DNA of 64,000 nt, from contig CAVURJ010000001.1 in the NCBI GenBank assembly GCA_963743885.1, forward strand, positions 279,488-343,487, written 5' to 3'. This document shows, one piece after another, positions 4,564-62,237 of the stretch. Position 1 is the first letter of the stretch, and each line of letters begins with the position of its first letter. The DNA is from Candidatus Moraniibacteriota bacterium (GTDB taxonomy: Bacteria > Patescibacteriota > Minisyncoccia > Moranbacterales > UBA1568). A program made the translations under genes and the position numbers. The notes beneath the pieces were generated by a model. That model did not search any database. It was not told where the DNA came from and was given only the letters and a program-made list of their open reading frames with translations.

Positions 4564-7107
4564 ATGTTGTGGAAGAGATTCGCATCGTATGATGCGGAAA
4601 GCTCGCTTGCTGAGCTCCAATCGTCGGTCGATGGGCTGTCGGAGGAATCCGTCCGGAGTCGGTTTTTGACGTTTGGAAAGAATGAGCTGGGCGGTAAGAA
4701 GTCATTCATCTACGAGGCCTTGCGTCGCCGCTTCAAGTCGTCGTTCCTCTACCTCTTGCTCGCTGCTGCCGTACTGGCGCTCTTTCTTGGGGATCGCCTT
4801 GATGCTCTCTTGATCGCCTTGTTCGTGGCAATCAATATTGGTCTCGAGACGTATCAGGAATATCGCTCTGAGCGATCGGCAGAGCTGCTCAAGAAATATC
4901 TCATCGTACGGGTGCGTGTCAGGCGTGATGGCCGTATGGTGATGACGGAAGGGAAGAACATCGTCCCGGGCGATATTGTGCTCGTGGAACCAGGTGACCG
5001 TCTGCCAGCTGATATCCGTTTTATCAAATCTGACGGCATCGAGGTGGATGAGAGCGTTATGACCGGTGAGTCCGTCGCTGTCGCGAAGACCGCCGATTCG
5101 CCGGACGTGCCACCGACAGAGATGTATGAGGCGGTGAATATCGGCTTTGCGGGGACCATCGTGACAGCGGGGCGTGGCGAGGGAGTGGTTTTTGCGACGG
5201 GCAAGGAGATGGCGCTTGGCGATATTGTTACGCTGACCGAGGGGACCGACCGTGAGACGGTTTTTGAGAAGGGTATGGCCCGGTTTAGCCGCTTTCTGGT
5301 GCGTCTGGTACTCCTGACGCTCACGATTATCTTTCTTGCGAATATCTTCATCAAGGGTGATGGGGCCGATCATATCGAACTCCTCGTCTTCTCGATCGCG
5401 CTTGCGGTCTCGGTGGTACCGGAGGCACTGCCGCTCGTCATGACGGTCTCCTTGTCACGCGGAGCTGTTCGTCTGGCGCAGAAGAAGGTCGTCGTGAAAC
5501 GACTCTCGGCTATTGAGGATCTCGGGAGTATCGAAGTGCTCTGTACCGACAAGACAGGGACGCTGACAGAAAACATGCTTTCCGTCGTTGATGTGCTCGC
5601 GCCCGATCGCGCAGCTTGTCTCACGGCAGCGTTTCAGGCTTCTCTTGAGGTGCCTGAGACGCGTGCTCATCTGCATGACGCTTTTGATTTGGCGCTCTTT
5701 CAGTCCTTGTCGGCCGATGAGCGGATGGTGGCGCTCGAGAAAGAGCGGATTGGGAGTATCCCGTTTGATCCGGAGCGTCGGCGCAACAGTGTGTTTGTCC
5801 AAGGCGGAAATGAACGCGCCATTATCGTGCGCGGAGCACCGGAAGAGATATTCCGTCTCTCGCATGGCATGGACCGGTATACCAGGATGCAGGCGACAGA
5901 ATTCGTAGCTGCTGCTGGGCGAAAGGGGCAGCGTGTCATCGCAGTTGCTTCAAGGCAGCTGCATACCGATGAGAAATGTACGGCGTATAGTGAGCAGAAT
6001 CTTGCGTTTCTCGGATTGATTGCTTTTTCTGATACGCTCAAGAAGACGGCCAAGCGGACCATTGCTGAGGCGCGCTCGCTCAACGTCGCGGTCAAGATTT
6101 TGACCGGTGATAGCCGCGAGGTGGCTGGCTCTGTCGGCTACGCCATCGGGCTGATTGATGACCCGGAGAAGGTGTTCACGGGTAAGGAGCTCGATGAGAT
6201 GCCGTACGAGGAGCGTCGCGACGCGGTTTTTTCTGGCTCTGTCTTTGCTCGTGTCTCGCCGCAGCAGAAGCACGATATCATCAAGCTGCTCCAGGAGCGC
6301 TACGGAGTCGGATTTCTTGGGGAGGGGATCAACGATGCGCCGGCGCTCAAGCTGGCGGATGTCGCTATCGTAGTGGATAGTGCTTCCGATATCGCTCGTG
6401 AGACGGCGGATGTCGTGCTGCTCCAAAAGAGCCTTGAGGCGCTCATCGATGGGATCCGGGAGGGGCGTTCTATCTTTGCCAATATTCTCAAGTATCTCAA
6501 GATCACGCTGACATCCAATTTTGGCAATTTCTATTCCGTCGCGCTCGCATCGCTCCTTCTGCCATTCGTGCCGCTTTTGCCGGTGCAGATTCTTCTCCTC
6601 AATCTTCTTTCGGATTTTCCGATGATTGCTATCGCGACCGACACCGTGGACAAGGCCGAGCTTGACCGACCGAAGAGCTACCAGATGCACACAGTGATCT
6701 ACCTGACGACGCTTTTTGGTGTCGTGAGCTCAGTCTTCGACTTTATGCTCTTTGGATATTTCTACCGCATTTCTCCGGAGGCACTCCAGACGGCTTGGTT
6801 TATGCTTTCTGTTATCACCGAGGTTGTGCTCATCTTTTCGCTTCGCACCAGCTTCGCCTTCTTCAAGGCCCGTCGTCCGTCCTTTGCGCTTATGTTCTTT
6901 TCATTCACGGCGCTCCTCATCGCGGTGGTGCTGCCGTTTACGTCGTTGGGCCAGGTGCTCCACTTTGCGCGCCTCGAGACGAGCTCACTCATCTTTATCG
7001 GCTGTTTGGCTGCCGGCTATTTCATGGTGACTGAGCTGGTCAAGCACATGTACGAGCGGCACCTGCGCCAGTCGCGCCGGGACGTTGCCGATCCGGTTGC
7101 CGCGTGA
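4564..7107 (+). CDS. Cation-transporting P-type ATPase (P2/P3-type, Mg2+/Ca2+-like)
   Basis: DKTGTLT phosphorylation motif, TGDS, GEGINDAPALKLADV hinge motif, multiple TM segments. Confidence 0.85.
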   Translation: MLWKRFASYDAESSLAELQSSVDGLSEESVRSRFLTFGKNELGGKKSFIYEALRRRFKSSFLYLLLAAAVLALFLGDRLDALLIALFVAINIGLETYQEYRSERSAELLKKYLIVRVRVRRDGRMVMTEGKNIVPGDIVLVEPGDRLPADIRFIKSDGIEVDESVMTGESVAVAKTADSPDVPPTEMYEAVNIGFAGTIVTAGRGEGVVFATGKEMALGDIVTLTEGTDRETVFEKGMARFSRFLVRLVLLTLTIIFLANIFIKGDGADHIELLVFSIALAVSVVPEALPLVMTVSLSRGAVRLAQKKVVVKRLSAIEDLGSIEVLCTDKTGTLTENMLSVVDVLAPDRAACLTAAFQASLEVPETRAHLHDAFDLALFQSLSADERMVALEKERIGSIPFDPERRRNSVFVQGGNERAIIVRGAPEEIFRLSHGMDRYTRMQATEFVAAAGRKGQRVIAVASRQLHTDEKCTAYSEQNLAFLGLIAFSDTLKKTAKRTIAEARSLNVAVKILTGDSREVAGSVGYAIGLIDDPEKVFTGKELDEMPYEERRDAVFSGSVFARVSPQQKHDIIKLLQERYGVGFLGEGINDAPALKLADVAIVVDSASDIARETADVVLLQKSLEALIDGIREGRSIFANILKYLKITLTSNFGNFYSVALASLLLPFVPLLPVQILLLNLLSDFPMIAIATDTVDKAELDRPKSYQMHTVIYLTTLFGVVSSVFDFMLFGYFYRISPEALQTAWFMLSVITEVVLIFSLRTSFAFFKARRPSFALMFFSFTALLIAVVLPFTSLGQVLHFARLETSSLIFIGCLAAGYFMVTELVKHMYERHLRQSRRDVADPVAA

Positions 7108-30678: not shown

Positions 30679-30852
30679 GGTAAATCTCCTTGTTTGAGGA
30701 AGTTGTTAAATGACGCTATAGAAAACAAAAAAGTGATAATGCCACGGGATGTTCCCTACGGATGGGACCGAAAAGAAAATCAGGTAACACTACCAACCGA
30801 CTTATGATACTGAAGAGTGCTTTTTGTGTCAACCCCGCGCTATTCTAGCGTA

Positions 30853-30861
30853 TGCTATAAT
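30853..30861 (+). promoter_or_regulatory. Extended -10 (TGcTATAAT), 9 nt before the start codon (near-leaderless mRNA)
   Basis: TGCTATAAT at 30853-30861, ATG at 30871. Confidence 0.4.
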
Positions 30862-30870
30862 GTCTTTGCT

Positions 30871-32154
30871 ATGGGAAAACACATATCCAAAGTATCTTTT
30901 GTTGTCTGTTTCGGCGCCGCGATTGCGTTCGCTGGGTTTTTGTTCATGGGGAGTCGGCCGGCGTATGCCGTAGAGAGTGCGGATGAGATCGAAAACGATA
31001 TCAGCAAGATCGAGAAGAAGTATGAAAAGGAGATGGCCGAACTCAAGGCGCTCCAGAAGGATCTCGGTCAGATCAATTCTTCGCTGACATCGACGCAACA
31101 GCTGATCCAGCGTACTCAGACGCTCCTCAATCAGACGGCTCAGACGATCAGTCAGAAGGAAGCGGAGATCGTCAATCTGGAGAACCAACTCCGGCTCGAG
31201 AAGAGCGTGCTCAAGGGGCTGATCCAAGAGCTGTACTTCGCCGAGACTGTACCGCTTGCGGAAGTGATGCTTGATCATGCCGAGCTCATCAGTCTCCTCC
31301 AGGGGAAGGATAATCTGCTTTCCACCCAAGAGAGGATGCAGGAGGTTATCCGGAGCATCAATGAGATGAGAGGGAAGGTCCTGGGCGAGAAGGCGTCTCT
31401 TGAGGATGTGAAGCAGGATCATGAAGAGTTGATCATCCTCAAGAACAAGCAGAAGCAGTCTCTAGCAGCGCAGAAAGTCGATGTGCAGGCGGATGTCAAC
31501 GAGCAGGAAGCGACTGTTGCGGAACTCCAGGAGAAGCTCGCCGAATTGAAGAGTGATCTCTCTGTGCTCACCGGAAAGTCGTACAATGCGAAGGATATCA
31601 AGGAAGCGGTTGAATTTGCGAGCGGTAAGACCGGCGTTCCGAAAGGGGTTCTCTACGGATTTTTGAAGATGGAGACCAATCTCGGTGCCAATACTGGCCA
31701 GTGTACATACAAGGATGTCGAGAAGGTCGCCGTGGCGCGGTACAAGAAGTACGGGAGTAAATACAAGTCATCTATTGCGCTCCTCTACAAGCGTCAGGAC
31801 ATCTTCTATAGTCTTGTCGATGACCTCGGCTACAGCAAGGACAAGAAGGTCTCGTGTTCGCCGAGCGGCTATGTGGGTCAAGGCGGGGCAATGGGCGTAT
31901 CGCAGTTCATGTCTGATGTATGGAGCGGGTATGCGTCGCAGATCCGGTCGTATACCGGACACAAGACGCCTGATCCATGGAATCTGACCGATGGCGTGAT
32001 GGCGATGTCACTCAAGCTCAAGAAGGCGGGAGCGACATCTGATAGCGCGGCCGCTATCAAGAAGGCCTCGATCAATTATCTAGGGACCTACTACGCGAAT
32101 TATTACAATGGCATCGTCTACTGGTCCAAGAATTACAAGAAGCTGTTCGAATAA
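30871..32154 (+). CDS. Secreted coiled-coil protein with C-terminal lytic-transglycosylase (SLT)-like domain
   Basis: Signal/TM. Long coiled coil. GAMGVSQFMSDVW resembles the SLT/MltB motif GAMGQMQFMPSTW. Confidence 0.5.
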   Translation: MGKHISKVSFVVCFGAAIAFAGFLFMGSRPAYAVESADEIENDISKIEKKYEKEMAELKALQKDLGQINSSLTSTQQLIQRTQTLLNQTAQTISQKEAEIVNLENQLRLEKSVLKGLIQELYFAETVPLAEVMLDHAELISLLQGKDNLLSTQERMQEVIRSINEMRGKVLGEKASLEDVKQDHEELIILKNKQKQSLAAQKVDVQADVNEQEATVAELQEKLAELKSDLSVLTGKSYNAKDIKEAVEFASGKTGVPKGVLYGFLKMETNLGANTGQCTYKDVEKVAVARYKKYGSKYKSSIALLYKRQDIFYSLVDDLGYSKDKKVSCSPSGYVGQGGAMGVSQFMSDVWSGYASQIRSYTGHKTPDPWNLTDGVMAMSLKLKKAGATSDSAAAIKKASINYLGTYYANYYNGIVYWSKNYKKLFE

Positions 32155-32159
32155 GGAGG

Positions 32160-32610
32160 CAGCTAGAGTCGATTCTTGACCAGAAAGCGTGTTTTCCCTA
32201 TACTGGGCCTAATTGTTCTTTGAGCAGGAAACGGTACCGAAGGCAGCGATGAGAGCGGGAATATCCTTTTCTCTTCACTGTCCTCGGCATCTATGAGGCA
32301 GTAAGCCGGTTGGGCCATCGGTCGTCGTGTCGCCATCAAGATGGACACGAACCGAAAGCTCCGCCACTTTTCATCGGTCACTACGGAGGAATCCAGACCA
32401 TGAAGAAACATGCCATCCCCGCGCCCCGGGGTTCTCCTGCGATCGCCCCCGCCTCGTTCGTCGCCAACAGTCTGGCCGCCGACGGTTCCTAGTACGACAC
32501 GCAAGGAACCAAGTCCCCTCCGTAACGGCACGGAGGGCAACCAATCTGCTCCCGGAACATCGGGACCCCCTGCCCTGTGGACTTCACGTTCACAGGGCAC
32601 TTACTTTTTG
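32160..32610 (+). ncRNA. Unidentified non-coding unit, GC-rich, ended by an intrinsic terminator
   Basis: No ORF of protein-like composition on either strand across 32155-32807. Terminator gccctgtg-gacttcacgttc-acagggc + ttactttttg at 32572-32610. Contains RNase-P-like (GAAACGGTACCG, GTCAGGCTTATC, GAAAGTCCG) and SRP-like (AAGGCAGCGATGAG) k-mers, but not in canonical order. Confidence 0.3.
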
Positions 32611-32807
32611 CGGCGATATTTAGGGTCTTGCCAAAGTCAGGCTTATCTGGTAGACTCTTTAAACAACTGAGAAAGTCCGACATCCGTCCCGCTTGCGCCC
32701 TTGTGGCAGAGACCAGGAAGGATACGCTCCCGTAGCAGAGGATTTTCTTTGTTGACGGGGTTTTTGTACCATAATTCATAAATCGTAAATCATAATTCAT
32801 CATATCT

Positions 32808-33320
32808 ATGGTTGAATACGAGCTGTTTTATCTCGTCGGTGAGTCGAAGGACGCGGAGCTGCCGCGCATCCGGACCGCAGTCGAGGAGGTTGTTACATCG
32901 AACGGAGGCACGTTCCTTCCGCCGATGACTGAAGAGAAGCGCAAGATGGCGTACGAAGTGAAGAAGGAAGTGCGTGGCACATACATCGCCCGCCGCTTCA
33001 CGTTGCCGGATGTCGATGAACGCGAGGCTGCTGGTACGGAGCTCGACGGGGAGGGGATGTACCCGATCGCTGCGATGAACCGCACGCTTCAGTTGTCGAA
33101 GGATGTGCTTCGTTCCATCATCGTCCGCGCGGACGATATGCCGGAACTCAAGGCTATCGAGCGCGTTGAGCGCCCGAAGACGGAGAATCGGAGCGGACGC
33201 TATGAGCGCCGTGGCGCAGTGCGTCCGATGCCGCAGGCCCCGATCGCCCCGAAGGAAGAGGCCAAGCCGGTCAGCCAGGAGCAGATCGATGCCCAGCTCA
33301 AGGAGAAGTTGGATATCTAG
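32808..33320 (+). CDS. rpsF: 30S ribosomal protein S6 (bS6) with C-terminal extension
   Basis: YELFYLV...EKRKMAYEVKKEVRGTYI matches the bS6 pattern. First gene of the rpsF-ssb-rpsR arrangement. Confidence 0.65.
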   Translation: MVEYELFYLVGESKDAELPRIRTAVEEVVTSNGGTFLPPMTEEKRKMAYEVKKEVRGTYIARRFTLPDVDEREAAGTELDGEGMYPIAAMNRTLQLSKDVLRSIIVRADDMPELKAIERVERPKTENRSGRYERRGAVRPMPQAPIAPKEEAKPVSQEQIDAQLKEKLDI

Positions 33321-61514: not shown

Positions 61515-62237
61515 ATGGCCAATGAAATCGTCCTGGTCGGCTTCTATCTCCTGACGCTCGTCTACTCGGTCATCATCCATGAGGTCTCGCATGGCGTCGT
61601 GGCGCTGTGGCTTGGCGACCTGACGGCCAAATACGCCGATCGACTCAATCTCAATCCGTGGAAGCATATCGATCCGTTCGGATCGATCATCCTGCCGGCG
61701 CTCATGTTTGTGAGCACGGGGTTCGCGTTCGGCTGGGCCAAGCCGGTGCCGTACAACCCGTACAATCTGCGCGACCAGAAGTGGGGGCCGGTCCTCGTGG
61801 CGCTCGCTGGTCCGATCTCCAATCTACTCCTCGCGCTTGTGGCTGCTCTTACCGCTGCTGTGCTGCCGCTCTCATCGCTTGCCCGAATGGACATTATGGA
61901 CCGTTTCATTGGTGTCATCGCCGGCCGCGGGGATTTCATGGATCGTTTCGGATTGCTCGCCGAGGCGCTTTCCGGATCGTTTTCTGCTATCCTGTTTGGG
62001 CTTCTGCTCTTGGTCATCTTCTGGAATGTCGTCCTGGCTTGCTTCAATCTGCTACCTATCCCGCCGCTCGACGGTTCGAAGCTTCTCTATGCGCTCGTGC
62101 CGCTCCGTGAGCGGACCATGTTCCTGCTCGAGCAATATGGCCTTTTCTTCCTTATTTTCGCCATATTCTTCCTGGCTGGCCCGATCAGCTGGTTCATCAA
62201 TACAGTCCTCGGATTCTTCCTAGCGATTGCTGCATGA
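61515..62237 (+). CDS. Site-2 protease family (peptidase M50) membrane metalloprotease
   Basis: HEVSHG (HExxH) in the first TM, NLLPIPPLDGSK second zinc-ligand motif. Polytopic. Confidence 0.8.
   Translation: MANEIVLVGFYLLTLVYSVIIHEVSHGVVALWLGDLTAKYADRLNLNPWKHIDPFGSIILPALMFVSTGFAFGWAKPVPYNPYNLRDQKWGPVLVALAGPISNLLLALVAALTAAVLPLSSLARMDIMDRFIGVIAGRGDFMDRFGLLAEALSGSFSAILFGLLLLVIFWNVVLACFNLLPIPPLDGSKLLYALVPLRERTMFLLEQYGLFFLIFAIFFLAGPISWFINTVLGFFLAIAA

Follow-up and report, generated by a model that had tools for sequence, protein, structure and literature searches.

The window, a 64,000-nucleotide stretch of DNA from a Candidatus Moraniibacteriota bacterium, carries in order recA, a minus-strand gene for a 169-residue hypothetical protein, a gene for an SLT_2-type transglycosylase that ends at 32154, the stretch considered here, and then rpsF (32808-33320), ssb, rpsR, efp and gyrB. 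The intergenic part is 473 nt long (32155-32627) and runs from the transglycosylase stop codon to the rpsF promoter. The S6 and transglycosylase proteins of the window have their best relatives in Moranbacteria MAGs, and an independent Logan assembly of the same organism is arranged in the same way and has a called gene of 30 aa. In the database, the transglycosylase is 427 aa long, which implies a start at ATG 30871 and not at GTG 30817 of the ORF list. A first-pass annotation had described the intergenic stretch as a GC-rich, terminator-bounded region with no credible ORF and with fragments resembling RNase P RNA. The stretch, its raised G+C, its terminator and an embedded 30-codon ORF are borne out below, but the absence of a credible ORF and the placement of the RNase P-like fragments are not.

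The unit begins with a sigma-70-type promoter on the plus strand (TTGACC-17 nt-TATACT, 32176-32204), which the first-pass annotation had missed. It matches the consensus at 10 of 12 positions, and its hexamers and 17-nt spacing are identical in all three copies of the unit that we found, those of the window and of two sister lineages, L018 and L027; the 5' half of the spacer has diverged between copies. Judged from promoter spacing only, transcription is predicted to start at ~32211. At the other end, on the same strand, lies an intrinsic-terminator-like hairpin with a U-rich tail (32571-32610), reported earlier as 32572-32610. It has a 12-pair stem (32571-32599), a 5-nt loop and the tail CTTACTTTTT; the U-tract is interrupted in the window and lies 5 nt away from the stem in L018. 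The plus strand of 32211-32612 folds better than shuffled sequences (z = -5.2). As had been noticed, G+C is raised: the window averages about 0.54 and 32300-32600 reaches 0.61-0.64. The excess is specifically one of C (C 40%, T 15%) and confined to 32400-32570. The same odd composition is common to the ORF regions of the three copies (C 40-42%, T 13-15.5%, C/G about 1.5-1.6), which were compared over 32400-32570 in the window, 3202-3395 in L018 and 1095-1330 in L027 and are poorly alignable. Such a C-rich, T-poor composition would also suit a Rho-utilisation site.

Between the predicted start site and the ORF lies a conserved, structured 5' leader (32211-32399, plus strand). Taken through to the end of P5 (32211-32404), its counterparts are 3004-3212 in L018 and 890-1099 in L027. 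Over its first 120 alignment columns, identity is 87-89% in each of the three pairwise comparisons among the window, L018 and L027; the neighbouring essential genes of the same lineages are 84-90% identical overall and 56-73% identical at third codon positions. In each of the three genomes, the leader (the 5' ~190 nt) folds significantly better than shuffled versions of itself (z = -3.8, -5.5 and -4.2), and the helices agree when each leader is folded independently by minimum free energy (MFE). Fifty-five pairs are common to the three MFE predictions as placed on a hand-made alignment, a definition that favours agreement: 45 are invariant, 8 show one-sided compatible changes and 2 are compensatory, and no variable paired column among them breaks a pair in any of the three copies. 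Comparison of the syntenic region in relatives for covariation, which the first-pass annotation had proposed, thus yields shared helices and two compensatory pairs, a thin signal drawn from three sequences only, whose lineages are about 85% identical in conserved genes, with the unit absent in most relatives. The suggestion that the region encodes an unrecognised structured RNA is upheld by the fold scores, the shared helices with some compensatory changes, and the lack of a match in Rfam.

The predicted fold is a series of hairpins, all on the plus strand. P3 (32234-32290) is long and irregular, has 22 shared pairs and appears in all three MFE folds, with changes from C-G to U-G and from G-U to A-U. 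P3a (32297-32307) is small, with 3 shared pairs. P4 (32308-32365) has three segments, a variable apical loop and 18 shared pairs, and it contains both compensatory changes (G-U/U-A/U-A and U-A/C-G/U-G). The junction CAUCUAUGAGGCAGUAAGCCGG (32288-32309) is identical in the three genomes; it shares three bases with the end of the P3 3' strand, contains P3a and extends two bases into P4. The last helix, P5 (32370-32404, 12 shared pairs), encloses the Shine-Dalgarno sequence GGAGG (32385-32389) and pairs the ATG at 32400-32402. Inside P5, a 22-nt stretch that holds both of these elements, GGAGGAATCCAGACCATGAAGA (GGAGGAAUCCAGACCAUGAAGA), is invariant in the three genomes. The motif CAUCGGUC occurs twice, in P5 (32372) and in P4 (32316). 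An outer helix P1, formed by GGGCC at 32205-32209 with 32313-32317, had seemed to be backed by two sequences; it was discarded, as it lies upstream of the predicted start and is unpaired in L027.

Behind the leader, the plus strand carries the 30-codon ORF (MKKHAIPAPRGSPAIAPASFVANSLAADGS, 32400-32492), with GGAGG 10 nt upstream of its ATG, as the first-pass annotation had recorded. It is a homologue, cut short in the window, of ORFs in two sister genomes that run from the same invariant ATG for 54 codons in L018 and 58 codons in L027. The DNA of the ORF regions is homologous between the window and L027 (z = 4.5, p<0.001) and between L018 and L027 (z = 8.5). In the peptide alignment L027 bridges the others, MKTNHRRPGFRGSTAIAVAS... 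aligning with MKTSHRRHGFRGSTVEAS... and MKKHAIPAPRGSPAIAPAS..., and the L018 and L027 peptides have the N-terminus MKT.HRR.GFRGST in common. The window and L018 peptides taken alone, first tried C-terminus to C-terminus, are not significantly similar (p about 0.08). In the window, a TAG stands in place of an Arg codon, and the homologous frame beyond it is still recognisable, though interrupted: the 3' untranslated remainder (32493-32570, plus strand) resembles the continuation of the L027 ORF and contains stop codons. In-frame 3-nt periodicity is strong for the L018 ORF (p = 0.0002) and borderline for that of the window (p = 0.05), and the same test finds none 3' of the stop codons or in the leader. 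In the window and L018, the two copies scored, host codon usage scores higher in the ORF frame than in either of the other two. The dN/dS ratio is about 0.7 between L018 and L027 and about 1.8 between the window and L027, which points to almost neutral evolution. The ORF part of the predicted transcript (32411-32570) is no more structured than shuffles (z = -0.4). A 145-codon ORF on the minus strand (32163-32600) was rejected; it mirrors the C-rich ORF of the plus strand, and indels shift its frame between genomes.

The peptides are hydrophilic, of low complexity, rich in Ala, Ser, Thr, Gly and Pro, and without a hydrophobic helix. Neither the three peptides nor any ORF of the region matches Pfam or NCBIfam. 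A search of 5.8 billion clusters and 1.84 billion representatives returned only the two query peptides and one repetitive 3828-aa protein, and the peptides are singletons in a collection of 15 billion proteins. These observations bear on a reading of the unit as an ordinary small-protein gene, in which the peptide is the product and the long 5' UTR an element of translational control or stability, such as a riboswitch, a thermosensor or a protein-binding leader. The invariant, well-spaced GGAGG and ATG, occluded by P5, are what such a gene would have, and the periodicity of the L018 ORF and the N-terminus common to L018 and L027 agree with it. However, the peptide is near-neutral, truncated in the window and without relatives or family in these collections, while the leader is conserved, and a regulator better conserved than its cargo is hard to explain. 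We consider the small-protein reading rather unlikely.

The opposite reading, a purely non-coding trans-acting small RNA in which the ORF is incidental, seems to us slightly less likely still. It would account for a leader far more conserved than the ORF, for the truncation in the window and for the lack of significance when the window and L018 peptides are compared by themselves, and open frames of 30-58 codons are expected by chance at 62% G+C. Yet the periodicity ends at the stop codon, codon usage favours the ORF frame in both copies scored, and a textbook Shine-Dalgarno sequence with ATG-AAG is invariant. Nor did the 64-kb window offer candidate targets: complements of the invariant single-stranded stretches of the leader occur there at chance frequency, and a 14-nt complementarity to 61866-61879 was set aside as being at chance level.

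The distribution of the unit is narrow. Sixteen Moranbacteria loci were gathered through S6, and more through homologues of S6 and the transglycosylase and through exact look-up of the S18 of the window. Five lineages, the window, L017, L018, L024 and L027, form a clade: they have the same S18, and their conserved genes are about 85% identical at the DNA level. The unit is present only in the window, L018 (2969-3440) and L027 (855-1400); it is absent at the locus from L017, L024 and L025 and from the 13 of L001-L016 whose loci include the upstream region. In loci without the unit, the transglycosylase stop codon lies 25-100 nt from the rpsF promoter. In L024, positions 5320-5345, which align with 32176-32187 and with 32625 onward in the window, keep TTGACCAGAAAG, the -35 box of the unit plus six bases, abutting the rpsF promoter, a remnant that resembles the scar of a deletion. 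With a covariance model built on the first 120 nt of the leader, no further copy turned up in 198 kb of sequence, blastn against phages and plasmids gave no match, and pattern scans of viral contigs gave none. The JGI metagenomes contained no match to the invariant 20-mer, in a collection evidently without the L018 and L027 contigs; three matches there to the P5/Shine-Dalgarno pattern (L021-L023) were rejected as unrelated, high-GC chance matches. The transglycosylase gene next to the unit (30817-32154) has evolved much faster than its neighbours, with 60-85% protein identity between lineages that have the same S18 and 95-100% identity in EF-P.

Loss from two of the five sister lineages indicates that the unit is dispensable, and it raises the possibility that the whole has no present function and is a neutral remnant of a decayed gene or of inserted DNA. 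The absence from L017 and L024, with only TTGACCAGAAAG left in L024 and fused to the rpsF promoter, and the truncated ORF of the window are consistent with this. The notion of a decayed gene, put forward in the first-pass annotation, does describe the small ORF of the window, but it does not extend to the leader, which is as conserved there as in the genomes with a full ORF. In every pairwise comparison the leader is much more similar than neutral evolution would leave it, and to the same degree; the promoter hexamers have stayed fixed where the spacer has diverged, and the helices survive substitutions. A neutral remnant is accordingly quite improbable.

The unit is a real, previously unclassified and very narrowly distributed structured leader with a micro-ORF, an element of a familiar kind. 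Since the leader is kept equally well in the window, where the ORF is truncated, and in the genomes with a full ORF, a function of the 5' domain at the RNA level is favoured, and a nearly neutral, truncated ORF behind a conserved leader leads us to conclude that selection acts mainly on the RNA domain. Our preferred reading, which we hold with about even confidence, is that the unit is a clade-specific riboregulatory leader or dual-function small RNA whose RNA domain is maintained by selection. We envision that the consensus-like promoter would drive an RNA of ~400 nt that ends at the intrinsic terminator just before the rpsF promoter, and that its first ~190 nt would fold into the hairpin series P3, P3a, P4 and P5. 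P5 would bury the invariant Shine-Dalgarno sequence and start codon, such that the ORF could be translated only once P5 opens, and the folded domain would act at the RNA level by binding a putative partner. More tentatively, the ~190-nt leader may represent a new class of structured regulatory RNA limited to one Moranbacteria clade (a riboswitch, a protein-binding RNA or a trans-acting RNA), whose function is independent of the peptide; the fold would then be intact where the ORF is cut short because the RNA does not depend on the peptide for its function.

Several known systems combine a structured RNA with a small ORF. SgrS/SgrT, RNAIII/delta-haemolysin and SR1/SR1P are dual-function small RNAs, in which the RNA part is conserved and the small ORF is poorly conserved and has been lost or truncated in some lineages. 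The unit resembles them in being a predicted independent transcript of a few hundred nucleotides with its own promoter and terminator and an RNA part that outlasts the ORF. It differs in having no sequence or structure homology to them, in that the conserved domain lies 5' of the ORF and masks the ribosome-binding site, and in being known from three copies. A second parallel is offered by translational riboswitches and by other leaders in which the Shine-Dalgarno sequence is sequestered: the leader of the unit has multiple helices and an invariant junction, and its last helix pairs the Shine-Dalgarno sequence and the start codon. Unlike translational riboswitches, it has no riboswitch match in Rfam, and what follows is an orphan ORF of 30-58 codons that is weakly constrained or unconstrained and therefore gives no hint of a ligand; our folding of the leader did not identify an alternative "on" structure. 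In type I toxin mRNAs (hok, tisB, ldr), a small ORF lies behind a long structured 5' UTR that blocks translation initiation, and the unit likewise has a small ORF after a long, highly structured 5' UTR. The peptides of such systems are small, hydrophobic and membrane-directed, whereas those encoded here are hydrophilic, and no antisense promoter or RNA was identified at the unit.

The genomes of CPR/Patescibacteria are tiny and poorly understood, and to our knowledge few regulatory RNAs have been described in these bacteria. A conserved structured RNA beside the rpsF operon of a reduced genome would give a handle on regulation in uncultured episymbionts, although its general importance is limited, as it occurs in three lineages and has been lost repeatedly.

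The housekeeping RNAs are a different matter. The unit is like RNase P RNA, SRP RNA and tmRNA in its ~400 nt, its strong structure and a few short resemblances in sequence, and the first-pass annotation had raised a permuted or divergent RNase P/SRP-type RNA on the strength of such resemblances, seen by eye. The comparison with Rfam that it had recommended revealed no known family: cmscan of 32100-32850 gave 0 matches at E<=10, neither to the bacterial RNase P RNA models (RNaseP_bact_a/b) nor to the SRP models with their domain IV loops (4.5S / Bacteria_large_SRP), tmRNA or 6S RNA, and the copies in L018 and L027 are likewise unmatched. Across the whole window, Rfam at gathering thresholds detects only 4 tRNAs, and ARAGORN reports the same number and no tmRNA. 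The predicted fold, separate hairpins in series, is also not the long closed hairpin with a central bubble of 6S RNA. At this locus the element is missing from the closest relatives, which would not be expected of an essential housekeeping RNA such as RNase P or SRP RNA. Of the three RNase P-like fragments, moreover, two are found past the terminator of the unit: GTCAGGCTTATC (32637) sits in the spacer of the rpsF promoter and GAAAGTCCG (32672) in the rpsF leader, within its invariant core. A permuted or divergent form of RNase P, SRP, tmRNA or 6S RNA can be dismissed for practical purposes.

What accounts for the P4-like fragments is thus the autoregulatory-type leader of the neighbouring operon, a different element. 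The rpsF promoter (TTGCCA-17-TAGACT) and a leader of ~130 nt (together 32628-32807) are conserved in all Moranbacteria loci examined. Within this leader, GAAAGUCCGA is invariant in 20 sequences, and a 5' segment, CAACUGAGAAAGU, can pair with a 3' segment, GCUUUCUUUGUUG, enclosing a middle part whose length varies; a hairpin and a U-run come next. The Rfam scan of 32100-32850 at E<=10 did not match this leader either. Fu et al. 2014 (PMC3895269) describe an rpsF 5' leader that binds the S6:S18 complex, a stem-loop whose inner helix is variable and whose bulge carries two conserved cytosines. The leader of the window (about 32660-32790) precedes rpsF-ssb-rpsR and shows an outer helix, an inner helix whose length varies, and an invariant ...GUCCGA... 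that includes two cytosines; judged by the text of PMC3895269 alone, it fits that description. The parallel concerns this neighbouring leader and not the unit. In another of the Moranbacteria loci, L015, a leader of the rpsF type occurs twice (1558-1679 and 2699-2817), in near-identical copies about 1.1 kb apart.

One further explanation is that the unit is an attenuator of the rpsF-ssb-rpsR-efp operon: how often transcription continues past the terminator at 32571-32610 would depend on translation of the leader ORF. The unit does lie directly upstream of the operon and in the same direction, and the U-tract of its terminator is imperfect. However, every relative, whether or not it carries the unit, retains a separate promoter and leader for rpsF. 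Nor did the unit reveal a terminator/antiterminator alternative, and a further segment of ~400 nt separates it from rpsF in L018 and L027. We regard attenuation as very improbable. The window lacks this intervening segment, which is found at 1391-1850 in L027 and about 3454-3762 in L018, between the unit and the promoter of rpsF. The segment is flanked by inverted repeats, of 28 nt with 86% complementarity in L027 and of 11 nt in L018, and has opposite orientations in the two genomes; it might be an invertible segment or a MITE-like insertion.
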